Origin: an uncultured Candidatus Saccharibacteria bacterium
GTDB lineage: Bacteria > Patescibacteriota > Minisyncoccia > Minisyncoccales > Staskawiczbacteraceae
Length of the DNA stretch: 64,000 nt
NCBI GenBank assembly: GCA_964479955.1
Contig: CAYZNK010000002.1
Coordinates: forward strand, 7,489 to 71,488
Direction: 5' to 3'
Under the pieces are notes generated by a model, which saw nothing but the letters and a program-made list of their open reading frames with translations, did no database searches and was not told the DNA's origin. Positions 4,901-58,490 of this stretch are shown here, in pieces. Each line of letters opens with the position of its first letter. Position 1 is the stretch's first letter. The translations under genes and the position numbers were made by a program.

Positions 4901-5052
4901 GATGTTTTCCTTATTTTCAAAGAGCCGACCGTAAAGAACAAAAACTATATTCAAGATAATTCCAAAAATAATTCTGTGTCAAGAGATGTTGATTCAAAAA
5001 ATAAATGTGGTAAAATAATAATTAGATAGTCCGCCAATCGGCGGAAAAAATT

Positions 5053-5493
5053 ATGCGAAAAAATAAAAAAATAATTTTGTTCGTTGCAATTTTAATTGTA
5101 ATTTTTGTTATTGCCATTATGGTTTTTGGCTGGCAGAAAAACGGTAACGAAAATCCGCAGGTAATAAACAATGGCACTGAAGGGATAATTTTGTTTTACG
5201 GACAGGAATGCCCGCATTGCAAGGATTTGGAAGAATGGATAAAAAACAATAAAATAAAAGAAAAAATAAGTTTTACTGAGCTTGAAGTTTATCATAACGA
5301 GGAAAACCAAAACTTGATTATGGAAAAAGCGCGCATTTGTGATTTAGATGAAAGCAGTATCGGAGTCCCATTTTTATGGACAGGAGAAACATGTTTGATA
5401 GGAGGGGAGCCCATTCAGCAATTTTTTCAAAACAATATAAGAAGCCAAGAAAACGCAAGTGAAAATTTACAGATAAATGAGGCCAATCAATAA
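5053..5493 (+). CDS. membrane-anchored thioredoxin-fold protein (CPHC)
   Basis: N-terminal TM helix followed by ILFYGQECPHCKDLEEWI. Confidence 0.75.
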   Translation: MRKNKKIILFVAILIVIFVIAIMVFGWQKNGNENPQVINNGTEGIILFYGQECPHCKDLEEWIKNNKIKEKISFTELEVYHNEENQNLIMEKARICDLDESSIGVPFLWTGETCLIGGEPIQQFFQNNIRSQENASENLQINEANQ

Positions 5494-6007: not shown

Positions 6008-6538
6008 ATGGAGGTTACAAAAGAAAAGATAGATGAGTTTATAAAAAAAGTAAATTCAAGCAAGGATAATCAGATGGATTTGTCTTCTGACGAAGATTTG
6101 TCTGTTGCAATAATGAATTTAATTTCTATTGAAGAACATTTCTTTTTTACGGGGGCAAAACTCCAAAAACCAGAATATTTTGATTTGCTTAATACTGCAA
6201 GGGAAATGAGAAAAGACCTTTTAAAAAGGATTATCAAAGACCCGGAAGGGGAAGTTTGGTGTATTTCAAAGCATTTGCTTGCAGCTTCAATGAGGCTTGT
6301 AGAAGTTGGCACTAAGGCCCAGGGTCAGCATAAAACGCAAGATGCAGCCGAAATGTTTAAAAAGGCATATGAACTTTACAGTTTATTTTGGGGGATTAAT
6401 CTGAATTTAGTTGGCATTGGGGAGGTAAAAAAAATTGACGAAAATCAGGTTAATAAAAAAGACGAAGACAAAAAAAACGGAATATTGGCAAAGCTTGGGC
6501 AAATGGTACAAAAAGTAATAGATTGCTGTAAAGAATAG
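6008..6538 (+). CDS. hypothetical protein
   Basis: 176-aa ORF with host-like composition. No family recognised. Confidence 0.6.
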   Translation: MEVTKEKIDEFIKKVNSSKDNQMDLSSDEDLSVAIMNLISIEEHFFFTGAKLQKPEYFDLLNTAREMRKDLLKRIIKDPEGEVWCISKHLLAASMRLVEVGTKAQGQHKTQDAAEMFKKAYELYSLFWGINLNLVGIGEVKKIDENQVNKKDEDKKNGILAKLGQMVQKVIDCCKE

Positions 6539-6574
6539 TACGCTGATTTGATTTTAATTTGAGCATTAAAAAAG

Positions 6575-6707: not shown

Positions 6708-7496
6708 ATGTTTGGATTGAACAAAACAACTCCAAGATTCTGCGACCTAAGGGGAAAAGTTGCAATAATAACCGGAGCTAAACAAGGAATGGGCAAGACT
6801 CACGCTTTGCTTTTGGCAAAAGCCGGGGCAAAAGTTGTTGTTTCAGATATTTCAAAAGAAGAATGCCAGCTTGTTGTTGACGAAATTAAAAAACAAAAGG
6901 GAGAAGCAATTGCTGTAAAGTGTGATATAAGCAACAAGGCAGATGTTGACAATATGATTAAGGAAACCCTGGAAAAGTTTAAAAAAATTGATATCTTGGT
7001 AAACAATGCCGGGATTTTTCCGTTCAAGCCGTTTTTAGAACTGTCAGAAAAAGATTTTATGAAAGTGATTGATATTAATTTAAAGGGATATTTTTTGTGC
7101 TCCCAAGCAGCTGCCAAAGAAATGGCAAAACAAAAATCTGGCGCGATTGTGAATATTTCTTCAATCGCAATGGGACAGGTTGGAATGGGGTTTGCCGGAT
7201 TGACTCATTATTGCGCCTCTAAGGGCGGAGTTGTTGGAATGGCAGAGGCTATGGCCCTGGAATTGGCTCCTCTTGGAATAAGGATAAATACAATAGCTCC
7301 AGGAGCTATTGAAACACCGGGAGCTACGGGTGGGGCTGACAAAAAAGGAGATGAATCGATGGTTTCAGTTGTGCCCATGAAACGATGGGGAAAGCCGGAG
7401 GAAATTTCAAATGCAGTTTTGTTTTTGGCTTCCGATGAATCATCTTATATGACAGGCTCTGTAATGGTTGTTGACGGAGGGTGGACAGCAACTTAG
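6708..7496 (+). CDS. short-chain dehydrogenase/reductase (FabG-like)
   Basis: TGAKQGMGK Rossmann motif, NNAG, catalytic YCASKGG. Confidence 0.88.
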   Translation: MFGLNKTTPRFCDLRGKVAIITGAKQGMGKTHALLLAKAGAKVVVSDISKEECQLVVDEIKKQKGEAIAVKCDISNKADVDNMIKETLEKFKKIDILVNNAGIFPFKPFLELSEKDFMKVIDINLKGYFLCSQAAAKEMAKQKSGAIVNISSIAMGQVGMGFAGLTHYCASKGGVVGMAEAMALELAPLGIRINTIAPGAIETPGATGGADKKGDESMVSVVPMKRWGKPEEISNAVLFLASDESSYMTGSVMVVDGGWTAT

Positions 7497-7676
7497 GGAA
7501 ATTTATTCGTAAATTCCCTTGACAGGTCAGTTGGTTACGAATAAAATAGGTTAATAACTAAAATTAAATAAAATTTTTGGCACAACTGAATTCTGCCAAA
7601 TTAAAAAATTGAAATTGTAAAATTAAAACACGAAACATTTTGTATCTGTTTTAAATTTCATTTCATAAAAAATATA

Positions 7677-7838
7677 ATGCCAGAGGCATATTGCGTAAAG
7701 TGTAAAGCAAAAAGGGAAATGAACGACCCAAAAGAAGTCACAATGAATGGCAAAGGAGGAAAAAAGAGAGCTGCAATGACAGGTATCTGCCCGGTTTGCG
7801 GAACAAAAATGTTTAAGATTATGGGCCTGAAGAAATAA
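7677..7838 (+). CDS. 53-aa zinc-ribbon protein (DUF5679-like), below the ORF-track cutoff
   Basis: ATG 7677 to TAA 7836-7838. Translation is MPEAYCVKCKAKREMNDPKEVTMNGKGGKKRAAMTGICPVCGTKMFKIMGLKK. Confidence 0.65.
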   Translation: MPEAYCVKCKAKREMNDPKEVTMNGKGGKKRAAMTGICPVCGTKMFKIMGLKK

Positions 7839-7839
7839 T

Positions 7840-8004
7840 ATCAGCCCTACTGTAAATTAAATTTTTGGTCTGCAAAATCAGAAAAGCTCCTCGTCTTATC
7901 TATTTTATTGATAAAACTCGTCGCTTTTCTGATTTTTCGCCGCAAATCTTTAATTTTCGCAACGGGCAATATTATTTTTCAGTCCCTGGGCCTGAAGAAA
8001 TAAT
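7840..8004. mobile_element. MITE-like long imperfect palindrome with a 17-bp flanking direct repeat
   Basis: gggcctgaagaaataat occurs at 7823-7839 and at 7988-8004. Between them are ~60-nt inverted arms sharing aataatat..aaattaaa..tttg..aaaatcagaaaagc. Confidence 0.6.
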
Positions 8005-8067: not shown

Positions 8068-8967
8068 ATGAAAAGAAAATATATTTTTCTGTTTTTAGGA
8101 TTTTTATTTGTGATAAATATTTTTTGTTGGAAAGAAGTTTTTGTTTTAGCCCAAAGTAATAATTTGGAGATTTATTTTTTAAATGTGGGGCAAGGAGACT
8201 CTGCTTTTATTAAAACTCCGGAAAATCATCAAATCATAATTGACGGAGGTCCGACCTCCGTAGCCCTGGAGAAGATAGCAAAAATAATTCCATTTTGGGA
8301 TAAAACAATAGACTTGGTTATTTTAACCCACCCTGAAAAAGACCATATGCAGGGGCTGATGGATATTTTAAAAAGATACAAAGCAGACCATATTTTGGTT
8401 TCAGGGGTTTTAAAAGATTCGGAAGATTATAAAGAGTGGCAAAAAATTTTGCAAAACCAGAAAAACAGGGGAGCAGATGTTATATCAGTAAGGGCAGGAG
8501 ACAGAGCTGTTTTGGGAGACGCTTTAATAAAAATTTTGTATCCTTTGCAGGACTTTTCTGAAGTTAAAACAAATAAAAGCACCAATGAATCCTGTGTAGT
8601 TTCTGACCTGGTTTTTGGCACAAACTCATTTTTGTTTGCCGGAGACATCTCTGCAAAAAACGAAGCAGAAATTATTGCGGCCCCAAGAACCGCAATAACT
8701 GCTGATGTTTTAAAAATTGCGCACCACGGGTCAAAATATTCCACTTCCGAAGAATTTTTAAAGAACGTCGGGCCTGAATTTGCCATAATATCTGTTGGAA
8801 AAAATTCCTACGGCCATCCAACCCAGGAAACTTTGCAAAAATTGGAAAAATTTGGTATACAAGTATTAAGAACAGACACAGACGGCGATATAAAATTTGT
8901 GTCTGACGGTACAAATATTATTGTTAATCCCAAATCCCCAAACCCCAATGCCCAATCCGCTGACTGA
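8068..8967 (+). CDS. ComEC/Rec2-related metallo-beta-lactamase-fold protein (MBL domain only, N-terminal anchor)
   Basis: YFLNVGQGDSAFI, LTHPEKDHMQG and KIAHHGSKYS motifs, with an N-terminal hydrophobic helix. Confidence 0.8.
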   Translation: MKRKYIFLFLGFLFVINIFCWKEVFVLAQSNNLEIYFLNVGQGDSAFIKTPENHQIIIDGGPTSVALEKIAKIIPFWDKTIDLVILTHPEKDHMQGLMDILKRYKADHILVSGVLKDSEDYKEWQKILQNQKNRGADVISVRAGDRAVLGDALIKILYPLQDFSEVKTNKSTNESCVVSDLVFGTNSFLFAGDISAKNEAEIIAAPRTAITADVLKIAHHGSKYSTSEEFLKNVGPEFAIISVGKNSYGHPTQETLQKLEKFGIQVLRTDTDGDIKFVSDGTNIIVNPKSPNPNAQSAD

Positions 8968-9003
8968 CGGATATTTGAGATTTGGTATTTGGATTTTGGG
9001 ATT
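8926..9003. repeat. CCCAA-rich imperfect inverted repeat (IVS-like stem without cargo)
   Basis: aatcccaaatccccaaaccccaatgcccaatccg / loop ctgactga / cggatatttgagatttggtatttggattttgggatt. It shares caatgcccaa with the repeats around 17155-17535. Confidence 0.6.
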
Positions 9004-9010
9004 TTAAATT

Positions 9011-10099: not shown

Positions 10100-10103
10100 A
10101 AAG

Positions 10104-10130
10104 TTTGTGGGGTGTCGGAGACCCCACAAA
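10104..10130. repeat. REP hairpin
   Basis: tttgtggggtgtcggagaccccacaaa. Confidence 0.8.
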
Positions 10131-10260
10131 ATCTTGACCTGGTTTTAAAAAGATATAAAATAAAGATAGCTCTGATATTTTAAATTAGATTCTATACGAA
10201 CTTTTTTTATGGGAGTTTGATATTTTTTAAGGCCGTGGCCTTAAAATGAGAACACCCACC

Positions 10261-10423
10261 AGACCTGCTGTTTAATAATTTTTCGTAACGAAAATTGAAA
10301 GATTTGAAGCGAAAATTATAAAAAATGAGGAGGTTTATATATAATATAAGCCGACGAATTTTTGATAATTTGTAGCCAAATATTTCAATTTGCAGTAGAA
10401 AGAAATTATTAAACAGCAGGTCT
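10261..10423. mobile_element. MITE-like long palindrome, same family as 7840-8004
   Basis: Perfect 21-nt terminal inverted repeat agacctgctgtttaataattt / aaattattaaacagcaggtct. The inner arms share aaattgaaaKatttg..aaattaTNaaaaat. Confidence 0.6.
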
Positions 10424-10569
10424 AATAATTTTGCTAGAAATCTAAAAAAATATTAGGGCAACAAAAAACAATTCGTTTAAGGCGAGTTGTTTTTTTGTTT
10501 TTAACTTTGCTTCCATGTTAAAATAAATAAAATAAGCGTGATTTTCATAATTAATACAACTAACCAGAG

Positions 10570-10595
10570 TTTGTGGGGTGTCCGGCACCCCACAA
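10570..10595. repeat. REP hairpin
   Basis: tttgtggggtgtccggcaccccacaa, immediately upstream of the RAYT gene. Confidence 0.8.
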
Positions 10596-10617
10596 CTAAA
10601 TAGTTTATTTTATAAAA

Positions 10618-11415
10618 ATGAAAATAAAACAGACACAATTAGTTAACAATGAAGTTTATCACATCATCTTAAGGGCAGTTGGCGATAGCTCTGTTTTTAA
10701 CGATCAGAATGACTATTATCGTGGTATTTTTTCCATCTACGAATTCAATAATTCGAAACCAACAGAAATATGGCTGAGGCGAATACAACGTAAAAAAGAG
10801 AAACTCCTTGAAAAACAGGAAGCATTGGGGTGTCCAGCATTGGGGTGTCCGACACCCCAACATTGTGCGACAAAAATAGTCATTGGGGTGTCGGACACCC
10901 CAATGACTAAAGAGGATGATAAGAGAGATAAATTTGTGGAGGTGTTGGCGTTTGCTTTTATGCCAAATCACATTCATTTGTTGCTTAAACAATTAAAAGA
11001 TTGTGGCATAAGTAAATTTATGCAAAAAGTTGGTGGAGGATATGCAAATTATTTTAATAAAAAATATAATCGCAAAGGGCATTTATTTAATAAGTTTAAA
11101 TCAGTTTATATCACTAATGATGACCAACTAAAAACAGTTTTTGCATATATTCACACAAATCCTTTATCTTTTGTGGAACCTAAATGGAAAGAAAATGGGA
11201 TTAAAGATGAAAATAAAGCAGTTAAATTTTTAGAAAAAGAATATAGGTGGTCAAGTCATTTTGATTATCTTGGCAAGAAAAATTTTCCGTCTGTGACCAA
11301 CAGAGATTTCCTTTCAGAAATAATGGGAGGAGAACAAGGATGCAGAGAAGCAATTAGGGATTGGATAAAATATAAAAAAGACATTAATAATTTTGGTGAT
11401 ATTATTTTAGAATAA
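10618..11415 (+). CDS. REP-associated tyrosine transposase (RAYT; IS200/IS605 TnpA-like Y1 HUH enzyme)
   Basis: YHIILRAV, HUH motif MPNHIHLLL and catalytic Tyr context AYIHTNP. REP hairpins flank it on both sides. Confidence 0.85.
   Translation: MKIKQTQLVNNEVYHIILRAVGDSSVFNDQNDYYRGIFSIYEFNNSKPTEIWLRRIQRKKEKLLEKQEALGCPALGCPTPQHCATKIVIGVSDTPMTKEDDKRDKFVEVLAFAFMPNHIHLLLKQLKDCGISKFMQKVGGGYANYFNKKYNRKGHLFNKFKSVYITNDDQLKTVFAYIHTNPLSFVEPKWKENGIKDENKAVKFLEKEYRWSSHFDYLGKKNFPSVTNRDFLSEIMGGEQGCREAIRDWIKYKKDINNFGDIILE
10823..10907. repeat. REPIN (inverted REP pair plus a partial third copy) embedded in-frame in the RAYT ORF
   Basis: cattggggtgtccag + cattggggtgtccgacaccccaa + cattgtgcgacaaaaatagt + cattggggtgtcggacaccccaatgac. 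It translates as ALGCPALGCPTPQHCATKIVIGVSDTPMT. Confidence 0.8.
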
Positions 11416-11422
11416 TTTAGCG

Positions 11423-11479
11423 GTCATTTTGCGGTCTCCGACACCGCAAGAATCTTGCGGTGTCGGAGACCGCAATGAC
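11423..11479. repeat. REPIN (inverted REP pair, GCGG class)
   Basis: ttgcggtctccgacaccgcaa-gaatc-ttgcggtgtcggagaccgcaa, flanked by gtcatt/aatgac. Confidence 0.8.
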
Positions 11480-11566
11480 TATTTGAAAGGGAAGTTATTC
11501 ACAGTGTTGACATCAAGAATTTATGATAAAATAAATAAAAATAGAAGTAGAAATTTAAAATTCTTA

Positions 11567-14500
11567 ATGCGATTAATGAGGGGAAATACCGCAAGAAAAA
11601 AAAGAGGAAAGAATTTTTCAAAACAAAAGTTCATTTTTTTGTTAAAATTTTTATTTCCTAAGAATATATTTTTATCACTGCTATCGGGGTTGGTCTGGGC
11701 CGGTTTGTTTTCTGTTGTTATCTATACTTTTGCAACTCCTCCCACAAGCCCCTATACATTGGGTGAAACTTTAAATCCATCTTGCGCTCCCGGATCAACA
11801 AATTGTACCGTCACCGAGCTTGCGGCTTATTCTTTTGGTTCTAATAATTTTTCAGGCACCGGAAATTTTGTAACAACAGGATCGGGATCATTTGGAAGTT
11901 TGGTTTTAACAACGTCAGCCTTGGAGGTTGGTTACGGAGGAACGGGCGTTGCGTCAATTGCGGCAGGTTCTGTTTTGGCGGCAAACACAGCCAATACGCT
12001 AACTGCAATAAATTCAACATCCGGAACCATGTATTTGAAGAATGTTGACGGAACAATCAGTTGGGGGGAAGTTTCATTAGGCTCTTATGTGCCGTACACT
12101 GGAGCAACATCAGATGTAAATTTGGGAGTAAATAATATTATTTCTTCAAAGTTAATTGGAGGTTCTGAAACTACTTCTGACCTTTCTCTTCAAACAACCT
12201 CAGGAATTGGAGCGACTGGAGCTGATATGCATTTTCTTGTTGGAAACAATGGTGGAACGGAAGCGATGACAATATTAAATTCTGGAGCAATAGGAATTGG
12301 AACAACCACACCACAAGTAAGCTTGCACAATAACGGTGACTTTATTACAAAGGGTCCATGGGCAGATGTCCGAGCTTATGGAGCAACCGGAGATGGAGTA
12401 ACCGATGATACTACGGCTGTTCAAGCTGCGTTGACCGCTTCACTAAATGTATATTTTCCCGCTGGAACATATTTGGTTTCAAATCTTACTGCCCAAACAG
12501 GTCAGCGTATTTTTGGAGATGGTACTCAGTCATCAATACGTTTTAAGGATGGGTCAACTGGATATCTGTTTGAATTATCTACTAAAGTGGTTCAATTTTC
12601 TAATCTTGACATAGACGGAGGAAGCAACACAGATAAATCTGCCACCGAATCAGCTGGAACACGCAGTGGTATTCACATGTCTTCAAACAATACTGGAAGC
12701 TCTATTCAAAACGTAGCCATTCACGGATTTGATAATATTGGTCTTGCATTTAATGGACTTGCTTCTCAGCCGGGATATGTAAACCCACCGGTAACAACAG
12801 GTGTAAGCGTTTATTATAATTACGTGGGTATAGATACTGGCGTAGGCGAAACTAATGGTGCTGAATATATGAGAATGTCTGATATTAATTCTTTTGGAAA
12901 TAGATATGGAATAATAATAAATTCTGGCAATATGACTTTTGCTGATTGTCATATCGATGGTAATGGTTATGGTGTTACCATTACAGACGCTTTTAACAAT
13001 GCTCATGGAACCATAGTTGGCAGTACTATAAACCACAATTTGTTATACGGTTTTTATATTGATGGAGCAAGTAATGGTTTTTCTATTACCGGTAACCAAA
13101 ATTATTACAGCAATGTTTATGTTAAAGATTCAACAGGAATTAATTTTAGAGGAAATACTTTTGGATCTTCAACTTTTACTTTTAGTGGAGGTGGTGTTAA
13201 TATGCTTGAAGGAAATTATTTTGTTTCTACACCATCTTTTTCAAGAACAAACGACAATTTTATAATTTCAGATAATTATACGGGCTCAAGTCCAACGTCT
13301 GTTAGCTCTGGTTTACAAATATATTCCGGACTTGGTTCAGTAAAAGCTTCGGCATTATCAACCTATGCTGCGCCAGTAAATATTGTTACGCCTAATCCAT
13401 TTAGTGGTACATCTACAGCTAATTCGGTTCCAAGTTTAGCAAGCAACGTTGCTATTACCACAAGTGATGCTTGGGGCAAAGATATTGGTGGTGTTTTAGG
13501 ATTGGGCGGGCAATATAATACAGCAGTAACATATCCACAGGTTATTTTTGGAGCATTAAGAGGAGGTAAAAGTACTGTTACAGATGGCGATATGGCCGGT
13601 TATTTAGGAATTTATACAAATAGCGGATCTGCTCTTTCTGAAGTAGCTAGATTTGATAACAATGGTTATCTTGGCATTGGCGTGGAAGCCCCATCGCAAG
13701 AGCTGGATGTTGTTGGCGATATTGAGCTTGAAGACACAACCTCAGATGACACCGGCGTTATCTACAAAGGAGCAAACAGGTTTTTACATAACTTCCATCA
13801 CCCGACTGGAAGCACTGCTGTGCCTACGGGTCAGAATACCTTTGTAGGCGAAGGAGCTGGAAATTTTACAATGGGAAGTACGGCAACAGAGACTTATCAC
13901 GGAAGTTATAATACTGGTGTAGGTTATCAAGCATTACAAGCCAATACCACAGGATTCTACAACACAGCGAATGGTGTGTCTGCCCTCTACTCCAATACCA
14001 CAGGAAGTTACAACGTTGCGAATGGCTCTAATGCCCTCCGCATGAACACCACAGGAAGTTACAACACAGCGAATGGTGTGTCTGCCCTCTCCTCCAATAC
14101 CACAGGAAGCTACAACACAGCGAATGGTGTGTCTGCCCTCTCCTCCAATACCACAGGAAGCTACAACACAGCGAATGGTGTGTCTGCCCTCCGCTTAAAC
14201 ACCACAGGAAACTCCAACACAGCGAATGGTATGAATGCCCTTTTTTCCAACAAAACAGGCTCTAATGGTGTGGCTATTGGGACTGAATCACAATACTATG
14301 CTAATGACACCTTAACCCCGTGGACAAACTACAACACCTCAGTTGGGTATCAGGCTTTAAGGGGTTCTACCACCGCCGCCGACAACACCGGCAACTACAA
14401 CACAGCGTTGGGATATCAGTCTCTGCTTAACATTACAACAGGAAGCCATAATACAGCAGTAGGGTATATGGCAGGATACTACATTGCAGGCGGAGCAGTA

Positions 14501-17131
14501 AATAACACAATATCTGACTACTCAGTGTACCTTGGAAACTCAACTAAAGCCTCTGCTGACAATGCCCAGAACGAGATTGTGATTGGATATGACGCAACAG
14601 GTCTTGGCAGTAACTCCGTTGTTTTGGGAAATTCAAGTATTACCACAACAGTCCTGCGTGGAGCTGTTGGTATTGGCGTGGAAGCCCCATCGCAAGAGCT
14701 GGATGTTGTTGGCGATATTGAGCTTGAAGACACAACCTCAGATGACACCGGCGTTATCTACAAAGGAGCAAACAGGTTTTTACATAACTTCCATCACCCG
14801 ACTGGAAGCACTGCTGTGCCTACGGGTCAGAATACCTTTGTAGGCGAAGGAGCTGGAAATTTTACAATGGGAAGTACGGCAACAGAGACTTATCACGGAA
14901 GTTATAATACTGGTGTAGGTTATCAAGCATTACAAGCCAATACCACAGGATTCTACAACACAGCGAATGGTGTGTCTGCCCTCTACTCCAATACCACAGG
15001 AAGTTACAACGTTGCGAATGGCTCTAATGCCCTCCGCATGAACACCACAGGAAGTTACAACACAGCGAATGGTGTGTCTGCCCTTTTTTCCAACAAAACA
15101 GGTTCTAATGGTGTAGCTATTGGTTATGATTCTCAGAGATATGCCAACGACACCGCAGTGGCTTGGGCAAACTACAACACCTCAGTTGGGTATCAGGCTT
15201 TAAGGGGTTCTACCACAGCGGCAAACAATACGGGGAATGAAAATAGTGTATTTGGATACCAAACACTTTACGCTAATACTTCGGGTCAAAAAAATTCTGC
15301 GATTGGAACTTGGTCTTTATATTCCAACACTACAGGAAGCTACAATACAGGAATTGGATGGGGAACTCTTTATAACAATACCACGGGTAATTCTAATATT
15401 GCACTTGGATATGAAGCGGGAAGATATATTGCTGATGGTTCAACATCTAATACTACATCTGATTACAGTATATATATTGGTAGAGGCGTAAAAGCCTCTG
15501 CTGACGATGCCCAGAACGAGATTGTGATTGGATATAATACGACAGGACAGGGAAATAATACAATCACATTCGGCAATACCTCAATGGTTGGGGCTTACTT
15601 CTTGGCAGACGATTATAAAACCTACTGGGGAGCAGGAAAAAATGCTTCAATCAACTATGATGGAGATAATATGTATTTTAATAGTCAGGAAGTTGGAGTT
15701 GGCAGTTTTATTTTTTCAGGAGGCAATGTTGGCATTGGAACAGTAACCACTCCAACTAACGCAAAATTAGTTGTAAACGGAGGCATAGCTGTTGGTGCTG
15801 ATGCATTAAATAATACAATCAGCACAGGTTCTTTGGGAGACGGAACTACCACTTTATATGTAGGCACATATACGGTAGATACCACGGCTCCTTCAGATAT
15901 AATTACAAAAGAAGAAATAGTTTCAACAAGTTATGGATTGGAAGATTTATTAAAACTGTCTGTTAAAAATTACAAATATAAAAGACAATATGTTAATGAA
16001 GGCGCGGTTCAAGAGGAACACACAGGTTTGATTGCCCAGGATGTTGAACAGATTTATCCTGAGGCTGTTATATACAGGTCGGATGGGCTTAAGGCTATTA
16101 ACTATACAAAAATGATTCCGCTGATTATCAGTTCTATACAGGAACTTTCTGCGGGAAAAACTTTGTCAGATAATGGAACTTGGGGTGAAGGCACAGTTTT
16201 TGGTTTGGAAGATTCTTCTTTTACGGCTCAGCTAAAGCTGGCTTTTACCAGCCTTGGAATCTATATTGAAAAAGGAGTGGCTACTTTTGAGGAAGTCATT
16301 GCGCAAAAAGCAACCATAAAAACAGCAAAGGTTGAAGGTCTTGAAATGGTTGATAAGACAACCGGCGAAATTTGGTGCACGCAGATTAGCAACGGCGAAT
16401 GGACAAAAACAAAAGGAGAATGTAATCCTTCCGTTGTGACTCAGGAAACTTCAACAGAAAGTTCTACACAAATAGAGACTGCGCTTGAAATTCAAACAAC
16501 AACGCAAAATGAAGTATCTTCAGAAGAAATCGTAGAAGAAGTCAAAGAAAAAGTTAAAGAAGAGGTTAAAGAAGAAGTGAGTCAGCAGGTTGCAGAAAAA
16601 ATTAAAGACCAAGTGGTCCAGGAGGTTACAGAACAAGTGACAGAACAGATAACAGAGGCAGTTCAACAGGTTACAGAACAAAGCAACGAAGCAAAACATT
16701 CGGCTAACGAAGCGCAACAGTCTGCAAAAGAGTCTCAAAAACATGCCGAACAAGCCCAGCAGGCTGTAGAAAAATCAACAAAACAGCAGGTAGAGGAAAT
16801 AGAACAAGAAGAAGCAGTAGAACCTGTTGAGGCTGTTGAAACCGTTGAAACCCTTGAAGTTGAATCAGCTGAGGAACCAACTGTTGAACAGCCCCAAGAA
16901 GAACAGCAGTCATCAGTTGGAGATTTAATACAAGAAACAACAGCGGGGTTGTTTAGCGGAGTTATGAATTTCATAAAATGGCTGTTTGGTTCTGCGGCCC
17001 AGACGGTTTCAAAGGCCGTCCCCGCGGATGTTATGCAGTCAACAGCCAGTTTATCATCAAGCGTTTCAGATAATTTTATACAGGGGATTAAACAGATAAT
17101 AAATGATGTTAAGAATATTTTGAAATTCTAA
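11567..17131 (+). CDS. giant membrane-anchored surface fibre protein: beta-helix (pectate-lyase-like), repeated fibre modules, peptidase-S74 intramolecular-chaperone domain and a Glu/Gln-rich tail
   Basis: ATG 11567 is chosen because upstream codons read through the REPIN. TM helix LSLLSGLVWAGLFSVVIY. DVRAYGATGDGVTDDTTAVQAAL..YFPAGTYLV. Recurrent G.GIG...P...L.V.G motifs. SDIITKEEI...GLIAQDVEQIYPEAV...INYTKMIPLIISSIQEL. Confidence 0.8.
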   Translation: MRLMRGNTARKKRGKNFSKQKFIFLLKFLFPKNIFLSLLSGLVWAGLFSVVIYTFATPPTSPYTLGETLNPSCAPGSTNCTVTELAAYSFGSNNFSGTGNFVTTGSGSFGSLVLTTSALEVGYGGTGVASIAAGSVLAANTANTLTAINSTSGTMYLKNVDGTISWGEVSLGSYVPYTGATSDVNLGVNNIISSKLIGGSETTSDLSLQTTSGIGATGADMHFLVGNNGGTEAMTILNSGAIGIGTTTPQVSLHNNGDFITKGPWADVRAYGATGDGVTDDTTAVQAALTASLNVYFPAGTYLVSNLTAQTGQRIFGDGTQSSIRFKDGSTGYLFELSTKVVQFSNLDIDGGSNTDKSATESAGTRSGIHMSSNNTGSSIQNVAIHGFDNIGLAFNGLASQPGYVNPPVTTGVSVYYNYVGIDTGVGETNGAEYMRMSDINSFGNRYGIIINSGNMTFADCHIDGNGYGVTITDAFNNAHGTIVGSTINHNLLYGFYIDGASNGFSITGNQNYYSNVYVKDSTGINFRGNTFGSSTFTFSGGGVNMLEGNYFVSTPSFSRTNDNFIISDNYTGSSPTSVSSGLQIYSGLGSVKASALSTYAAPVNIVTPNPFSGTSTANSVPSLASNVAITTSDAWGKDIGGVLGLGGQYNTAVTYPQVIFGALRGGKSTVTDGDMAGYLGIYTNSGSALSEVARFDNNGYLGIGVEAPSQELDVVGDIELEDTTSDDTGVIYKGANRFLHNFHHPTGSTAVPTGQNTFVGEGAGNFTMGSTATETYHGSYNTGVGYQALQANTTGFYNTANGVSALYSNTTGSYNVANGSNALRMNTTGSYNTANGVSALSSNTTGSYNTANGVSALSSNTTGSYNTANGVSALRLNTTGNSNTANGMNALFSNKTGSNGVAIGTESQYYANDTLTPWTNYNTSVGYQALRGSTTAADNTGNYNTALGYQSLLNITTGSHNTAVGYMAGYYIAGGAVNNTISDYSVYLGNSTKASADNAQNEIVIGYDATGLGSNSVVLGNSSITTTVLRGAVGIGVEAPSQELDVVGDIELEDTTSDDTGVIYKGANRFLHNFHHPTGSTAVPTGQNTFVGEGAGNFTMGSTATETYHGSYNTGVGYQALQANTTGFYNTANGVSALYSNTTGSYNVANGSNALRMNTTGSYNTANGVSALFSNKTGSNGVAIGYDSQRYANDTAVAWANYNTSVGYQALRGSTTAANNTGNENSVFGYQTLYANTSGQKNSAIGTWSLYSNTTGSYNTGIGWGTLYNNTTGNSNIALGYEAGRYIADGSTSNTTSDYSIYIGRGVKASADDAQNEIVIGYNTTGQGNNTITFGNTSMVGAYFLADDYKTYWGAGKNASINYDGDNMYFNSQEVGVGSFIFSGGNVGIGTVTTPTNAKLVVNGGIAVGADALNNTISTGSLGDGTTTLYVGTYTVDTTAPSDIITKEEIVSTSYGLEDLLKLSVKNYKYKRQYVNEGAVQEEHTGLIAQDVEQIYPEAVIYRSDGLKAINYTKMIPLIISSIQELSAGKTLSDNGTWGEGTVFGLEDSSFTAQLKLAFTSLGIYIEKGVATFEEVIAQKATIKTAKVEGLEMVDKTTGEIWCTQISNGEWTKTKGECNPSVVTQETSTESSTQIETALEIQTTTQNEVSSEEIVEEVKEKVKEEVKEEVSQQVAEKIKDQVVQEVTEQVTEQITEAVQQVTEQSNEAKHSANEAQQSAKESQKHAEQAQQAVEKSTKQQVEEIEQEEAVEPVEAVETVETLEVESAEEPTVEQPQEEQQSSVGDLIQETTAGLFSGVMNFIKWLFGSAAQTVSKAVPADVMQSTASLSSSVSDNFIQGIKQIINDVKNILKF
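13676..14088 (+). repeat. 413-bp segment, copy 1 of a perfect in-frame duplication
   Basis: By eye it is identical base for base to 14672-15084 (offset 996 bp = 332 codons). Confidence 0.85.
13955..14260 (+). repeat. six tandem 51-bp (17-aa) repeats, (S/F)YNTANGVSALxSNTTG
   Basis: Units read off the sequence; the central units are near-identical at nucleotide level. The second module (14951-15103) has only three units. Confidence 0.8.
14672..15084 (+). repeat. 413-bp segment, copy 2 of the perfect in-frame duplication
   Basis: Identical to 13676-14088. Confidence 0.85.
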
Positions 17132-17135
17132 TTTC

Positions 17136-17177
17136 TAAAAAATCCCAAAACCCAATGACCAATGCCCAACAAAATCC
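17136..17177. repeat. left inverted repeat bracketing the four-helix-bundle gene
   Basis: ccaatgcccaacaaaatcc (17159-17177) is the perfect reverse complement of 17559-17577. The outer CCCAA-rich part matches imperfectly. Confidence 0.75.
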
Positions 17178-17535
17178 TAAAATAGAAAACCCTAAAAAGT
17201 ATGATTTAGTTGAGAGAACGACAAAATTTAGCAAGGATATTATAGATTTTTTAAAAAAAGTTCCAGAAAATTCAATAACTAAACCGATAATAAATCAATT
17301 AATAAGGTCTGGAACAAGCATAGGGGCTAATTATTGCGAAGCAGATGAAGCAAATTCTAAAAAGGATTTTATTAATAAAGTTTGTATTTCTAAAAAAGAA
17401 ACAAAAGAAACTAAATATTGGTTGGAATTACTTGCTTATACGCTACCAGAGTTAAAAGATAAATCCAGAACTTTATGGAAAGAAGCTCAAGAGTTTAATC
17501 TTATATTTGCATCTATAATTAAAAAATGTAAATAA
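17155..17535 (+). CDS. four-helix-bundle protein (23S rRNA intervening-sequence protein family)
   Basis: QLIRSGTSIGANYCEA...KDF..K..I..KE..ET.YWLELL signature of the family. The start codon lies inside the left inverted repeat. Confidence 0.85.
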   Translation: MTNAQQNPKIENPKKYDLVERTTKFSKDIIDFLKKVPENSITKPIINQLIRSGTSIGANYCEADEANSKKDFINKVCISKKETKETKYWLELLAYTLPELKDKSRTLWKEAQEFNLIFASIIKKCK

Positions 17536-17558
17536 AACGTTTTGGGATTTAAGAGATT

Positions 17559-17600
17559 GGGATTTTGTTGGGCATTGGATTTTGGAATTTGGATTTTTAA
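17559..17600. repeat. right inverted repeat bracketing the four-helix-bundle gene
   Basis: ggattttgttgggcattgg followed by attttggaatttggattttt. Confidence 0.75.
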
Positions 17601-17622
17601 ATTTTAATTTTTGAATTTTATA

Positions 17623-20019
17623 ATGAGTTTTAGTCATAAAAAATTTTTGTTTACTCTTTGCCCTGTTTTTTTGGGATTATTTTTTTGCTGTGCGTCTTGC
17701 GCTTTGGCAAACGGAACCATTGATTCTACTGAAAAATATGCTTGGTCAGAAAATATGGGATGGATTGTTTTTTCAACAGATGGGGCGGGAAGCGTAAGCA
17801 TTTCTGATTCTGAATTAACCGGATATGCCTGGTCTGACAATTACGGATGGATAAATTTGGCGCCTGCGGGTTCGGGGGTAAAAAATACAACTGACGGAGT
17901 TTTATCGGGATACGCATGGGGGGAAAATACCGGCTGGATAAATTTTAGCGGAGTGACAATAAATTCTTCGGGATATTTTACAGGAGCTGCAACAGGAACT
18001 ATTTGCGGGGATATTAGTTTTGACTGCAGTAATTGCAAGGTTAAAACTGATTGGACTCCTTCTTCGGGGACAGTAGAGTCAACGCCATCGGGGAGTGTTG
18101 GCGGGGGAAGCTCGGAAATCTCCATCGGTTTTTTAATAAATAATGGAGCTGATGCAACAAATAGCCAGAATGTGGTTTTAAATTTTCCGGCAATGCTTAG
18201 TATCTCAGAGGTATCTGTTTCAAACTATGAAAACTTTGACAATGCGAAGGTTGAAGAGTTCCAGAAAACAAAAAATTGGGTTTTATTGCCCGGAGACGGA
18301 GAAAAAACAGTTTATGTCAAATTTTTTACCAAATACGGAAATCCTTATTATATCTCGCAGGACAGCATTGTGCTGGATACGGTTGGGCCGGAATTGTCAA
18401 TAACAAAAATCAAAGAAAGTTATAACATATCAGAGAGCGTTATAATAGGGGGGACAACTGAGCCAGAAAGCAGAATTGATTTGCTAATTGATAATGTTTA
18501 CTATACGCAGTTTTCAGCTGACAAATTAGGCAGTTGGCTGGTAAATTTAGGAGAATATGATATGGGGAGTCATAACTTAAAACTTGCGGCAAAGGATTTG
18601 GCAGGAAATTTTGGGAAAACGGTGGATGTTGATTTTTCAGTGAAACAGCCAGAGATCACAGAAGGAGAACCGCAGAAAGGAATCTCTGAAACAATGACTG
18701 AAACCTTGTTGCCATTTTTGGGAGTTATAAGAGACAGATTAAATGTATTGTTTCCCAATATAATAAAGCCAAAAGAAGTTGAGCCCACAGAGGTTGTTGT
18801 TGTTCCTAAGGTTGCGCCTTTAAGCTTTAGCGCTAAATGGAATCTTTTGCCAGAAAAAGAGATAAGGGAGTTTGTACTGTCTCCTTTGCCTGAAGACATA
18901 CGAATTATTGCAAAAAAATTTCCCGAATTAAGCGACACGCTTTCTAATGTTGGGATTGAAAAAATTACTGATGTTTCAAAATTAAAATTAGTTTCTTTTA
19001 AACTGCCCAGCATTACACAGACAGCAAATTTTTTGGAAGGAGATTTGGAGACAAAAGAACTATCTTCAACTGTTGGAATCCCTATAGCTTCCCTTACAAG
19101 CTATGCCAAAAGCCAAATTCCTTCTGAAATTATCTTTTCAAAGACGGGCGGGGGAAAAATTGATTTTAATACCCAGCTTTCAATTAATGATGCTGGAAAA
19201 ACCGAACAAAGAATTTCCACGCTTACAAGAAATATTGTTCAGTTTATAGTTAAGGTTGATAATCCCGTCAAAGCAATTAAGGGATATCTTGTTTTTAAGT
19301 CCAGGCAATATAAAAAAATATCTTCAGGAGTGTCTTTAAACAGCCTGACAGCATCTTTAATGTTTGATAATCCAGATTTTACAGAGCCAACGGAAAAAGA
19401 AATAATAGATACAAATGAGTCCGAAACAAAGCTTGTTTTACAGGAATTTGATTTTATTGACACAGGTGACGGAGTTTATACAGCCGATGTAGAAATGCCT
19501 GTTGTTAAAGGAGAATATGAAGTTATGGCAATTATAAATTATAAAAATGAGGCCCTTGGAATAAAACAGTTAAATCTGATAACGGTTGTTGACCCCGAGG
19601 GATATGTTTATGAGAAGTCAGGAGATAAAGAGACGCGCATTTCGGGAGCCATAGTTTCGCTTTATTGGCTTAATCCGTCAACAAAACAATACGAGCTTTG
19701 GCCCGGAGAAAATTTTCAGCAGGAAAACCCGCAAGTAACTGACGTCACGGGGAATTATTCATTTTTAGTTCCAAACGGGTTTTATTATATTAAAGTTTCA
19801 GCTCCAGGATATCTAATATATGATGGAAAGCCGCTTGAAGTCAAAGAGGGTTCCGGGGTGCATATAAATATTGAATTGAAGACAAAATATTGGTGGCTCA
19901 GTGCTATTGACTGGAAGACTGTTTTGCTGATAATAGCCGTTGCGATGGTCTTGTACAATTTTTATCGCGACAGGGCAAGAGACTTATCTTTTAAAAATCA
20001 GGTTGGAAGCAAAATGTAA
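17623..20019 (+). CDS. large secreted surface protein with GYAW(S/G)(E/D)N.GWI repeats, Ig-like region, CarboxypepD_reg-like domain and C-terminal TM anchor
   Basis: Signal peptide; three repeats (KYAWSENMGWIVF, GYAWSDNYGWINL, GYAWGENTGWINF); GAIVSLYW...TDVTGNYSFLVPNGFYYIKVSAPGY; C-terminal VLLIIAVAMVLY. Confidence 0.75.
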   Translation: MSFSHKKFLFTLCPVFLGLFFCCASCALANGTIDSTEKYAWSENMGWIVFSTDGAGSVSISDSELTGYAWSDNYGWINLAPAGSGVKNTTDGVLSGYAWGENTGWINFSGVTINSSGYFTGAATGTICGDISFDCSNCKVKTDWTPSSGTVESTPSGSVGGGSSEISIGFLINNGADATNSQNVVLNFPAMLSISEVSVSNYENFDNAKVEEFQKTKNWVLLPGDGEKTVYVKFFTKYGNPYYISQDSIVLDTVGPELSITKIKESYNISESVIIGGTTEPESRIDLLIDNVYYTQFSADKLGSWLVNLGEYDMGSHNLKLAAKDLAGNFGKTVDVDFSVKQPEITEGEPQKGISETMTETLLPFLGVIRDRLNVLFPNIIKPKEVEPTEVVVVPKVAPLSFSAKWNLLPEKEIREFVLSPLPEDIRIIAKKFPELSDTLSNVGIEKITDVSKLKLVSFKLPSITQTANFLEGDLETKELSSTVGIPIASLTSYAKSQIPSEIIFSKTGGGKIDFNTQLSINDAGKTEQRISTLTRNIVQFIVKVDNPVKAIKGYLVFKSRQYKKISSGVSLNSLTASLMFDNPDFTEPTEKEIIDTNESETKLVLQEFDFIDTGDGVYTADVEMPVVKGEYEVMAIINYKNEALGIKQLNLITVVDPEGYVYEKSGDKETRISGAIVSLYWLNPSTKQYELWPGENFQQENPQVTDVTGNYSFLVPNGFYYIKVSAPGYLIYDGKPLEVKEGSGVHINIELKTKYWWLSAIDWKTVLLIIAVAMVLYNFYRDRARDLSFKNQVGSKM

Positions 20020-20050
20020 AATTTCTTGTTAATTAAAAAAAACAAAAAAG

Positions 20051-20440
20051 ATGATAATAAACTTAAAAGAAATATATTTAAGCCGTAAAAAAATAATATT
20101 GTTTTTATTGTTGGTTTTTGCGCTGTTTGGAATTATTCTTCTTGCAATAAAATGTTGCTCCCTTAAATCAAGGGTTGATGCTTTAGAGTTTGAAAACAGC
20201 AATCAGAAAATAAACAGGGATGTTGTAGTATTTCTGAAACTTTTTATTGAAAAAATTCTGCAAGGAGAAGAAGAGGTTTCTTTTGAGGACAGGTTAAAGC
20301 TTGAAAATTCGGTAAGAGACCTGAAAGACAAAGAAGTCTTATCTTTATGGGAGAATTTTACACAAGCTAAGACCTCGGAAGAAGCCCAGTTTTCTCTTAA
20401 AAATTTGTTGCGGGCATTGGTTGATAAAATAGTTTATTGA
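20051..20440 (+). CDS. small N-terminally anchored protein, paralogue of 23258-23620
   Basis: FIEKILQGEEEVSFEDRLKLENSV...SEEAQ...LLRALVDKIVY aligns with the 23258 product. Confidence 0.65.
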   Translation: MIINLKEIYLSRKKIILFLLLVFALFGIILLAIKCCSLKSRVDALEFENSNQKINRDVVVFLKLFIEKILQGEEEVSFEDRLKLENSVRDLKDKEVLSLWENFTQAKTSEEAQFSLKNLLRALVDKIVY

Positions 20441-23706: not shown

Positions 23707-23777
23707 TCGGGCTGCTGGGAGTTGCACCCAGGTCTTACGCACCCCATGCGCAAATACTGCTGCTGTACTACAGCCCG
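23707..23777 (-). tRNA. candidate tRNA-Pro (anticodon GGG) with non-canonical D and T loops
   Basis: Hand fold of the minus strand. Acceptor CGGGCTG/CAGCCCG. D stem GTAC/GTAT. Anticodon stem TGCGC/GCGTA with loop AUGGGGU. T stem CTGGG/CCCAG. C1-G72 and A73 fit tRNA-Pro. However the D loop AGCAGCA lacks GG and the T loop is TGCAACT. No encoded CCA. Confidence 0.55.
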
Positions 23778-28430: not shown

Positions 28431-28456
28431 AGTTAGCAAGCTCCAACCTTGCAAGA

Positions 28457-28505
28457 ATTGGGGTGTCGGACACCCCAATATTGTGCGACAAAAATAGCCA
28501 TTGTA
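28457..28505. repeat. REP hairpin plus the REPIN linker sequence (half REPIN)
   Basis: aattggggtgtcggacaccccaatattgtgcgacaaaaatagccattg. The linker is the same as in 10861-10885. Confidence 0.8.
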
Positions 28506-28557: not shown

Positions 28558-28607
28558 TTTGCGAGGTCGGACCTCGCAAGGTTTTTGCGAGGTCGGACCT
28601 CGCAAAA
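28558..28607. repeat. two direct REP hairpins (GCGAG class)
   Basis: ttgcgaggtcggacctcgcaa occurs twice, separated by ggttt. Confidence 0.8.
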
Positions 28608-28611
28608 CTTT

Positions 28612-29010
28612 TTAGTATTCTGCACAGCTGCCGGAAGATTCTTCAGTGGAAGGATTTTTGACTGCGGGAAATTCGCAGGTATCCTCAATATTGTCTTGTT
28701 TAGGTTCTTTTTCTTGAGGGTCTCCGATACCCGCAAGTTCAAGCCCAAATCTTTTTAAGAATTTCTTGGCTCGTTCCACCGCTGGATCCCAATGGATACG
28801 ATTTGAATGTCCCTTGATTAATCCACGAATAATTCCTGCGAATTCTTCGTGTTTTTCGTTAGCGCGGCGTTTAAAATACGCCCGCCGGGACAAAGGAAGC
28901 GCTACAACACTTGTAAGTTCCCAGCCTTGTTCGGCGAGTTGGCCAATAATGATTTGTTCATCGGATGCGTCTCCGCATAGGTCGTAGACACAAAATTTCC
29001 ACTTTTTCAT
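28612..29010 (-). CDS. hypothetical protein with N-terminal DUF4177-like domain, antisense between fusA and tuf (cassette E)
   Basis: AGGAG at 29021-29017 lies 6 nt before ATG 29010. MKKWKFCVYDL...QLAEQGWELTSVVAL...AYFKR resembles DUF4177. The track start 29196 is rejected. Confidence 0.65.
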   Translation of the reverse strand: MKKWKFCVYDLCGDASDEQIIIGQLAEQGWELTSVVALPLSRRAYFKRRANEKHEEFAGIIRGLIKGHSNRIHWDPAVERAKKFLKRFGLELAGIGDPQEKEPKQDNIEDTCEFPAVKNPSTEESSGSCAEY

Positions 29011-31887: not shown

Positions 31888-32517
31888 ATGAAAACAGATG
31901 TTTACAATCAAGAAGGCAAAATAGTCGGAAGCGCAAATTTGCCAAAAGAAATATTTGAAGTAAGTTTCAATGCTGATTTGGTGCATCAGGTTTTGGTTTC
32001 AATGAACTCAAACAAAAGACAGAATTCTGCACATACAAAAAATAGAGGAGAGGTGCGCGGGGGAGGAAAAAAGCCATGGAGGCAGAAAGGAACAGGACGA
32101 GCAAGGCACGGGTCTTCAAGGTCTCCTATATGGAGAGGCGGAGGAATTACCTTCGGTCCCAGAAATGAAAAAAATTATGTCAAGGATATCCCTAAAAAGA
32201 TGAGGAGAAAGGCCTTGTTTATGCTTCTTTCAGAAAAATTAAAGTCAAACCAATTGGTTGTCTTGGATGGAATTGAACCAAAATCAGGAAAAACAAAGGA
32301 AATGGCAGAGATGTTGAAAAAATTGCCATGCAAGGGCCAAAATACATTAATTGCCTTGCCAAATTATGATAAAAAAATTGTTTTGTCTGCAAGGAATATT
32401 AAGAAAACATCAATTGAAGAGACAAGAAATTTGAATGTCCTAAACCTGTTAGATTATAAGTATTTATTATTGACAAAAGACGGAATTAAAACAATAGAAA
32501 ATACATTTTTGAAATAA
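31888..32517 (+). CDS. rplD: 50S ribosomal protein L4
   Basis: GGGKKPWRQKGTGRARHGS.RSPIWRGGG. Confidence 0.96.
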   Translation: MKTDVYNQEGKIVGSANLPKEIFEVSFNADLVHQVLVSMNSNKRQNSAHTKNRGEVRGGGKKPWRQKGTGRARHGSSRSPIWRGGGITFGPRNEKNYVKDIPKKMRRKALFMLLSEKLKSNQLVVLDGIEPKSGKTKEMAEMLKKLPCKGQNTLIALPNYDKKIVLSARNIKKTSIEETRNLNVLNLLDYKYLLLTKDGIKTIENTFLK

Positions 32518-32540
32518 TTAGAAATTAGAAATTCGTTATT

Positions 32541-39366: not shown

Positions 39367-39399
39367 TTTTCAATTATCAATTTTCAATTTTTAAAAATT

Positions 39400-46439: not shown

Positions 46440-46480
46440 TTTCAAACTTTAAATCAATTTTAAATTTTAAATTATTTCAC

Positions 46481-58449: not shown

Positions 58450-58490
58450 CGAAAAACGAATTTCTAATTTATAATTTATAATTCTATTTT

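Follow-up and report, generated by a model that had tools for sequence, protein, structure and literature searches.

The stretch of 64,000 nucleotides (nt) analysed here, in the following called the window, belongs to contig CAYZNK010000002.1 of an uncultured Candidatus Saccharibacteria bacterium. Between two large genes it carries a small open reading frame (ORF) encoding a four-helix-bundle protein such as those present in intervening sequences (IVS) of 23S rRNA. The ORF is enclosed by inverted repeats, and a preliminary description of this DNA regarded both together as a portable cassette. The locus comprises the following features:

11429-17131, + strand: upstream neighbour, 1900 amino acids (aa), a very large repeat-rich secreted or surface protein with a Peptidase_S74 chaperone domain
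17132-17622, + strand: whole cassette, delimited by sequence reading, with complementarity limits at about 17123 and about 17610
17139-17208, + strand: left arm, C/A-rich tandem heptamers, holding the 19-mer at 17159-17177 and the start codon
17155-17535, + strand: four-helix-bundle gene, 126 aa, PF05635 / TIGR02436
17529-17598, + strand: right arm, G/T-rich tandem heptamers, holding the 19-mer at 17560-17578
17623-20019, + strand: downstream neighbour, 798 aa, N-terminus resembling a signal peptide, CarboxypepD_reg domain, hydrophobic segment at the C-terminus

Nothing but the cassette lies between the 1900-aa gene, which stops at 17129-17131, and the 798-aa gene, whose ATG is at 17623. The cassette arms hold a perfect 19-nt inverted repeat, CCAATGCCCAACAAAATCC at 17159-17177 and GGATTTTGTTGGGCATTGG at 17560-17578. 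This repeat is real and its left copy lies where it had been reported, but the right one had been placed 1 nt too low, at 17559-17577. In 20 shuffles of the window the longest perfect inverted repeats measured 12-15 nt. Around the 19-mer the complementarity extends imperfectly, as the preliminary description had it, to arms of 70 nt (17139-17208 and 17529-17598, 74% complementary), which rank first among the inverted repeats of the window and reach a local-alignment score of 58 compared to a control mean of 18.6. This complementarity fades at the upstream stop codon and about 13 nt before the downstream ATG, and the cassette was therefore taken to be the whole spacer 17132-17622.

RNA folding closed the long stem on both strands (z -3.9 and -4.9), with an uninterrupted helix of 22 pairs. 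The left arm includes the ATG and codons 2-8 (MTNAQQN), an arrangement that had been read from the sequence before. In the predicted structure, the A of the AUG is paired, while the UGA of AUGA lies in a 3-nt internal loop. An rRNA context, already denied in the preliminary description, is indeed absent: both neighbours are protein genes, and no Rfam family or rRNA was matched in the whole window at gathering score or in the region 16900-17800 even at E<=1. The cassette being a known RNA family was rejected on these grounds. The same applies for a promoter or terminator of its own, since promoter-like sites occurred at chance frequency, the same as in shuffles, and no terminator was found.

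The case for a cassette had been made to depend on the repeats being conserved around other copies of the gene family. We sampled 80 loci from species-representative genomes and 80 from metagenomes and aligned the upstream flank of each gene locally to the reverse complement of its downstream flank, using pairs of the same geometry from the same locus as controls. About 70 of the 72 testable genome loci scored above the controls (typically 40-60, whereas the controls averaged about 17 and did not go beyond about 25). Among the metagenome loci, 70 of 71 exceeded the control 95th percentile (median 43 versus 17). In all, about 140 family members of like build were detected in Patescibacteria, Planctomycetes, Verrucomicrobia and cultured cyanobacteria. 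The median length of the longest uninterrupted helix is 14 pairs (9 in controls), and the duplex between the arms has a median energy of -43.5 kcal/mol.

In the window cassette, the left arm reads as the heptamers AATCCCA AAACCCA ATGACCA ATGCCCA and so on, the right arm as TTGGGAT TTTGTTG GGCATTG GATTTTG GAATTTG GATTTTT, with TTGGATT x3.3 reported at 17575-17597 by Tandem Repeats Finder. The arms of the family show the same periodicity. Their autocorrelation is 0.57-0.60 at lag 7 and 0.51-0.53 at lag 14 compared to 0.27 in controls, and they contain a median of 3.5-3.9 heptamer copies per arm (controls 2.0). The heptamer itself varies with the lineage (AATTTTC, AATTTTA, AATGACG, TAATGTC, AAATGCC and others). 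Left and right arms of the same cassette pair better with each other than with foreign arms (median score 44 versus 23), which in the closest subfamily corresponds to duplex energies of -43.1 and -34.6 kcal/mol, respectively (permutation p below 1e-4). Arm similarity increases with protein identity (Spearman 0.41), a correlation confounded by host relatedness.

Cultured cyanobacteria show the heptamer pattern in its purest form. The finished sequence of Dolichospermum pAfl69 reads (GTAATTC)4(GGAATTT)6 - ORF - (TTACGAA)4, that of Nostoc punctiforme pNPUN02, also finished, (CAATTCG)4 - ORF - (CGAATTG)4. G-quadruplexes do not provide a general reading of the arms, as many of these are composed of A/T-only heptamers (AATTTTA, AATTTTC); the right arm of the window cassette has three GGG runs, below the at least four of a G-quadruplex.

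The strand of the cassette gene relative to its neighbours could be counted at 122 loci, using simple gene calls. The gene was in sense with both neighbours at 95 loci (52+43), with only one of them at 18+9, namely (+,-) at 8+7 and (-,+) at 10+2, and antisense to both at none; neighbouring genes share a strand at a background rate of 79%. The arms directly adjoin the neighbouring genes, often with 0-10 nt between the upstream stop and the left arm and 0-20 nt between the right arm and the start that follows. In the median, the upstream gene ends 46 nt before the ATG, and the downstream gene begins 76 nt after the stop of the cassette gene.

Profile searches bore out the earlier assignment of the 126-aa ORF as a four-helix-bundle protein. 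It matched PF05635 (23S_rRNA_IVP; E 1.3e-16, 61.2 bits at a cut-off of 33.8) and TIGR02436 'four helix bundle protein' (E 1.7e-22, 79.7 bits at a cut-off of 24), and a profile built on 32 homologues matched PDB entry 2rld at E 1.2e-23. The AlphaFold model (predicted local distance difference test, pLDDT, 90) contains helices at residues 19-34, 42-64, 69-96 and 98-125. Residues 1-14, encoded by the left arm, are predicted to be disordered (pLDDT below 50) and lie outside the fold. The top Foldseek matches were the IVS-type 'S23p' proteins 2RLD (template modelling score, TM, 0.75-0.87) and 2GSC (TM 0.75-0.83), followed by Avd, a protein of diversity-generating retroelements (DGR; 4DWL and 8UB7, TM 0.60-0.65). 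The solved structural relatives have five chains per entry.

A motif GxxRxxxSxxxNxxE has been noted earlier for the PF05635 family (PMC3936711). The protein of the window carries it as R51-x3-S55-x3-N59-x2-E62, the leading G being replaced by Q48. Of the alignment columns of the 32 homologues, 35 are invariant, S55, N59 and E62 among them, and R51 is nearly so. The rates of non-synonymous and synonymous substitution (dN 0.148, dS 1.47, dN/dS 0.10 compared to the homologue at locus L082; dS saturated compared to that at L084) indicate that the protein is under purifying selection and hence functional. Its N-terminal MTNAQQNP consists of left-arm heptamers translated in frame, and homologues share MTNxQxNP. 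Because this segment is arm sequence and lies outside the fold, its conservation most likely reflects conservation of the arm. An origin from a defence system or a phage was rejected, as the protein had no PADLOC or PHROG match and only two weak phage matches in tblastn.

The preliminary description had pointed to 8926-9003 as a cargo-less stem of the same kind. We found there a hairpin of inverted heptamers, whose end is to be set at 9004:

8926-9004, + strand: cargo-less hairpin, (AATCCCC)x4.7 at 8926-8958 and (ATTTGGG)x4.6 at 8973-9004

The hairpin folds with -27.3 kcal/mol (z -3.8) and takes up the spacer that separates a ComEC-like from an adenylate-kinase-like gene. Its resemblance to the cassette arms, the second point on which the earlier proposal had been made to depend, ranks first in the window: each arm has its best match here, on the correct strand, with scores of 33 and 40 compared to 99.9th percentiles of 27 and 33. 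The ComEC-like ORF (8068-8967) runs through the left arm of this hairpin, so that its C-terminus ...NPKSPNPNAQSAD* is encoded by heptamers, with the stop codon at the apex.

Arm-like sequences laid out as hairpins recur elsewhere in many related loci. At locus L076 the spacers of a four-gene operon, read from ORF layout and translation as a putative pyruvate/2-oxoacid:ferredoxin oxidoreductase operon, are occupied by three hairpins, each measuring about 110 nt, and by a single cassette, a ratio of cargo-less to cargo-bearing copies of 3:1. The arms of this cassette belong to the same family as the hairpins, and its ORF sits exactly at the apex. In 13 pairs of hairpin and cassette, homology typically ends at the ATG (+1 to +5; about +33 where the arm is translated) and, on the other side, restarts with the stop codon (-6 to +2). 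The interval between these blocks of homology is -1 to 15 nt in the clearest of the cargo-less copies. A cargo-less hairpin equals a cassette minus its ORF. Another locus, L020, carries two cassettes with different heptamers (4939-5403 and 7150-7635) 2.2 kb apart in a prepilin-like gene cluster, and the spacer between them contains a solo direct array, (AATTTTA)x4 at 6518-6548.

Several comparisons bear on whether the unit moves. Homologues with 74-79% protein identity and the same CCCAAT-type arms occupy unrelated places: in the ATP synthase operon of L084, between atpG and atpD, and at L082 between uvrB and ruvA. Conversely, locus L087 keeps the synteny of the window, with genes for proteins of 799 aa, 128 aa, 735 aa (tetratricopeptide repeat), 175 aa and 118 aa, and its upstream gene product shares homology with the 1900-aa protein at the C-terminus (51% in the last 83 aa). 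At this junction, no more than 4 nt separate the two genes, without cassette and without hairpin. The 64-kb window contains two copies, and related loci contain up to four in 4.7 kb (L076).

A related genome has this locus as well (L081). Its ORF shows 99.0% identity over 296 nt and its right arm 92%, compared to 82.6-85.7% for five flanking genes. A dN/dS of about 0.1 and the divergence of the flanks predict far more synonymous change than is seen, so these sequences imply a recent transfer or conversion of the cassette. The L081 contig (k141_198590 of ERZ27247363) ends in the cassette: in region 1-125 the left arm and some 28 codons at the start of the ORF are missing, and the first ~100 nt of the contig show unrelated sequence instead. 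Either the cassette is really truncated there, or the assembly broke or became chimeric at the repeat. Not every copy is of recent date. The cassettes of L147 and L154 are orthologous, with identical left arms and right arms differing by a 22-nt indel (about three heptamers); thus, some cassettes are vertically inherited.

With a probability of about 0.6, we consider 17132-17622 to be a complete copy of a widespread, promoter-less, intercistronic selfish cassette, in which a PF05635 ORF sits at the apex of a hairpin with arms of about 3-6 inverted heptamers. The portability put forward in the preliminary description is upheld by the unrelated contexts, the empty orthologous site, the gap in conservation between cassette and flanks and the cargo-less hairpins. 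The heptamer arrays, the strict sense orientation, the spread across phyla and the purifying selection go beyond it. As the best reading we infer an IVS-type cassette that resides in mRNA operons instead of rRNA, is co-transcribed and is looped out.

According to this proposal, the cassette would be transcribed by read-through from the host operon. Its arms would pair in the transcript and loop the insert out, whereby the upstream stop would meet the downstream start. Loop-out would keep the operon continuous (the genes are 4 nt apart in the empty site of L087), as an IVS keeps its rRNA helix. The stem may be a substrate of RNase III, as it is in the 23S IVSs of Coxiella and Leptospira with the same ORF family and heptamers. 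The start codon, placed in an internal loop of the stem, would be translated only once the stem opens or is cut. The protein, as a relative of the pentameric RNA-binding Avd of the DGR ribonucleoprotein (RNP), might by analogy act on the heptamer arrays. Spread would probably make use of the arms, with the cassette recombining into cargo-less hairpins that are already present or being helped by a protein. Recombination into hairpins fits the clean indels at the apex, but not insertion at hairpin-free sites.

A number of observations weigh against this reading. The relative with the empty site is fairly distant (56% aa identity in the neighbouring gene), and the site may reflect loss instead of gain. 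An assembly chimera at L081 is a possible cause of the contrast between 99% and 84% identity. No direct repeat indicating a target-site duplication was read at the outer ends of the cassette, although their A/T-rich sequence could hide short ones. The 64-kb window contains neither an rnc gene nor rRNA, and a function of the stem at RNA level, RNase III cleavage included, is postulated by analogy. In Coxiella, the IVS ORF is apparently untranslated and decaying (PMC4990558). Furthermore, among 389 mismatches between arms, 56 were compatible with G-U pairing in the sense strand and 69 in the antisense strand. Because a sense-strand excess is lacking, the stem could matter equally as DNA, or homogenisation at DNA level could keep the arms alike.

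A possible, though doubtful, alternative is recombinational 'homing'. The heptamer hairpins would then be the primary and older elements, arising or expanding by slippage, and the ORF, together with the inner ends of the arms, would spread among them by homologous recombination or gene conversion via the arms with no dedicated enzyme. Presence and absence of the ORF do appear as a clean indel at the apex, with homology stopping at the ATG and resuming at the stop, cargo-less hairpins locally outnumber cassettes (3:1 in L076) and the 22-nt indel shows a shift in heptamer copy number by slippage. The conservation of the cassette far above that of its flanks at the same site fits conversion as well. 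However, homing leaves unexplained how a cassette could arrive at a hairpin-free site (the 4-nt spacer of L087) and why the protein is strongly conserved, and the two cassettes of L020 carry different heptamers within one genome.

Alternatively, the unit might be a DNA transposon or a miniature inverted-repeat transposable element (MITE), which we judge unlikely. The arms would be terminal inverted repeats, read as double-stranded DNA or as single-stranded DNA hairpins by a transposase acting in trans, e.g. from the Y1 gene at 10618-11415, which resembles the transposases associated with repetitive extragenic palindromes (REP; RAYT). The ORF would be a passenger and the cargo-less hairpins non-autonomous derivatives. 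The arms do resemble terminal inverted repeats, short derivatives are present in multiple copies, the mismatches have no G-U bias towards RNA pairing and the transposase-like gene is 6 kb away. On the other hand, this gene is ringed by REP palindromes of its own (GGGGTGTCGGACACCCC type) and not by heptamer arrays, and it was rejected as the mobiliser since these palindromes have a different sequence, though in principle it might act as one. Unlike transposase-specific ends, the arms differ widely among lineages and vary in heptamer number. Moreover, a target-site duplication is not visible, the strict orientation (0/122 antisense to both neighbours) would need a separate explanation, and PF05635 is the only gene that always travels with the arms.

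Still less probable is a resident gene, i.e. a host regulator or RNA-binding protein among generic intergenic heptamers, with incidental symmetry and nothing mobile. An excess of heptamers is known from bacteria (PMC4692102), other spacers of the window contain A/T heptamer arrays of the solo kind (39365-39391, 46430-46473, 58459-58483), and vertical inheritance is observed at L147/L154. Yet inverted pairing is specific to the flanks of PF05635 genes, being found at nearly all of about 140 loci when compared to controls of the same geometry. Close homologues reside in unrelated operons, even inside atpG-atpD, the syntenic site in L087 is empty, and the ORF is 99% identical where the flanks are 84%.

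DGRs are frequent in bacteria of the candidate phyla radiation (CPR), and both neighbours of the cassette are large surface proteins, which would suit an Avd accessory protein of a retroelement diversifying them. In spite of the Avd-like fold (4DWL, 8UB7, TM 0.60-0.65) and the common occurrence of PF05635 beside DGR reverse transcriptases (PMC10053308), we rejected this hardly credible reading: Pfam scans of the neighbours and most other large ORFs of the window gave no reverse transcriptase (RT) domain, no pair of template and variable repeats (TR/VR) was present (a direct-repeat scan of 11400-20100 found only the internal duplications of the 1900-aa gene and 51-nt arrays), and both in sequence and in fold the protein stands much nearer to 2RLD and 2GSC than to Avd.

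The window contains further repeats. Short spacers between co-oriented genes are filled with solo A/T-rich heptamer arrays without an inverted partner, several of which fall within a run of small, closely spaced ORFs:

32516-32533: solo array (AATTAGA)x2.6
39365-39391: solo array (AATTTTC)x3.9
46430-46473: solo array (AAATTTT)x6.7
58459-58483: solo array (AATTTAT)x3.6

The RAYT-like Y1 transposase gene (10618-11415) matched PF01797 at E 2.7e-11 and REP_Tyr_transpos below the cut-off. Palindromes of REP type (TTGGGGTGTCGGACACCCCAA and variants) surround it at 10105-10134, 10566-10595 and 11430-11484. A further one, including a 15-nt tandem duplication, lies inside the ORF (10821-10909), and others were detected at 28447-28470 and 28558-28612. 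This RAYT/REP system is separate from the heptamer hairpins. A palindrome of 147 nt (7840-7986, -53 kcal/mol, z -7.3) is flanked by the 17-nt direct repeat GGGCCTGAAGAAATAAT (region 7823-8003), which duplicates the last codons and the stop of a small zinc-ribbon-like ORF (7678-7838); this looks like a MITE insertion with target-site duplication. A gene-free spacer of 518 nt at 10100-10617, strongly structured (-176.6 kcal/mol), contains an inverted repeat at about 10258-10280 / 10408-10428 and had no Rfam match. ARAGORN detected a tRNA-Pro(GGG) at 23707-23777 (-), even though the Rfam scan of the whole window at gathering threshold reported no family.

The upstream neighbour of the cassette matched tail-spike and virion-structural phage PHROGs (E down to 9e-66). 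Its true start is probably downstream of the TTG at 11429, near 11568, because the ORF call from this TTG overlaps a REP palindrome. Within the gene, a direct repeat of 300 nt is 100% identical (13671-13970 = 14667-14966) and goes on at 98% (13941-14093 = 14937-15089), in addition to arrays with a 51-nt period. This repeat (13671-15140) arose recently by internal duplication, or else the assembly collapsed or expanded here.

What is new here is an IVS-type cassette in mRNA operons with a heptamer-array architecture that spans phyla and was previously unremarked. In our incomplete coverage of the literature, no paper was found that connects genes of PF05635 with inverted heptamer arrays outside rRNA. 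ORF-bearing 23S IVSs have been unexplained since 1993, and so, separately, has the heptamer excess of bacteria, seen in the short tandemly repeated repetitive (STRR) sequences and in GGGAATC; the evidence presented here joins both. If this connection holds, there is a general intercistronic element of which the rRNA IVS is one special case, and the heptamer arrays are a candidate ligand for a protein family with thousands of members and no known function outside DGRs. Culturable test systems would be at hand with Nostoc punctiforme pNPUN02, Dolichospermum pAfl69 and Xanthomonas. For genome annotation, the cassette accounts for 'four helix bundle protein' genes interrupting conserved operons and for contig breaks at these places.

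A more far-reaching proposal, tentative and in our view rather unlikely, is that the PF05635 pentamer is the trans-acting partner of the heptamer arrays (about one heptamer per subunit) and the cassette the autonomous form of a very large, cross-phylum family of heptamer hairpins. This family would then span rRNA IVS stems, cyanobacterial STRR, the GGGAATC pairs of Xanthomonas and the operon spacers of CPR bacteria, and the cargo-less copies would be its non-autonomous derivatives. A mobile or self-maintaining system would be run by a small RNA/DNA-binding protein that is not an enzyme, and the long-noted excess of heptamers in bacterial genomes would be explained.

Among known elements, the gene cassettes of integrons share with the present one a promoter-less single ORF, external transcription and an imperfect, hairpin-forming repeat. 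In integrons, one attC is found at the end of the ORF, whereas here the repeat halves bracket it; moreover, integrase and array are lacking and single copies are scattered in housekeeping operons. Correia/nemis elements, enterobacterial repetitive intergenic consensus (ERIC) sequences and REP or bacterial interspersed mosaic elements (BIME) are palindromic, co-transcribed elements and likewise multi-copy, imperfect hairpins of about 80-150 nt in operon spacers. Correia elements of Neisseria are cut by RNase III within mRNAs. In contrast to all of these, the arms of the cassette are tandem heptamers instead of unique terminal inverted repeats, some of the hairpins bear a conserved protein gene at their apex, and no target-site duplication was seen, although the A/T-rich ends could hide a short one. 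MITE-like repeats are short and non-coding, which is true of 8926-9004 only, while the cassette encodes a conserved protein of 126 aa. The REP/RAYT system of the same window is a separate repeat family. With Avd, the protein shares the four-helix-bundle fold, and Avd is a pentameric nucleic-acid-binding protein in an RNP with RNA. However, the cassette has no RT, TR/VR or retrohoming context, and its protein is much nearer in sequence to the 2RLD type.

Also close to the cassette is the ORF-bearing 23S rRNA IVS of Leptospira, Coxiella burnetii and Xanthomonas, together with the rRNA inserts of CPR bacteria, which also contain PF05635 ORFs. As in the cassette, a PF05635 'S23p' ORF is situated within stem-forming inverted repeats, heptamers lie beside the ORF and ORF-less versions exist; these IVSs are thought to be selfish and horizontally transferred (PMC4990558; bioRxiv 10.1101/2024.02.27.582315). 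The link to them drawn in the preliminary description is strengthened by Coxiella burnetii, whose 23S IVS carries the same ORF family with 3-4 tandem copies of GACAGAT, variable in number, just upstream of the ORF, and whose stem is cut by RNase III at the first repeat (PMC4990558). An ORF of this family is also found between cmr3 and cmr2 of a cyanobacterial CRISPR operon. The cassette differs from the IVS in its position between protein genes of an mRNA operon instead of in an rRNA helix. Its ORF is under strong purifying selection, whereas that of Coxiella is apparently untranslated and decaying, and RNase III excision, demonstrated for the IVS, is proposed for the cassette by analogy.

The arms, for their part, resemble the inverted pairs of heptameric simple sequence repeats (SSR), which also comprise about four tandem units and lie in spacers of co-oriented genes. 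Rehm et al. described (GGGAATC)n in Xanthomonas, mostly with 4 units and in 70-75 convergent pairs, transcribed and situated between co-oriented genes (PMC4692102). The same study reports GGGGAYT arrays in Nostoc and GGGGAYT/STRR repeats in Nostoc, Anabaena and Calothrix, an over-representation of heptamer repeats in bacteria, and copy numbers that differ among relatives while the repeat type is kept. These arrays were treated as possible G-quadruplexes, without cargo and without mention of S23p (PMC4692102), whereas many cassette arms consist of A/T-only heptamers that cannot form them. The window units GGGATTT, GGGCATT and GGAATTT are of the GGGANTN type, and in cyanobacteria PF05635 genes are themselves bracketed by perfect inverted heptamer arrays.

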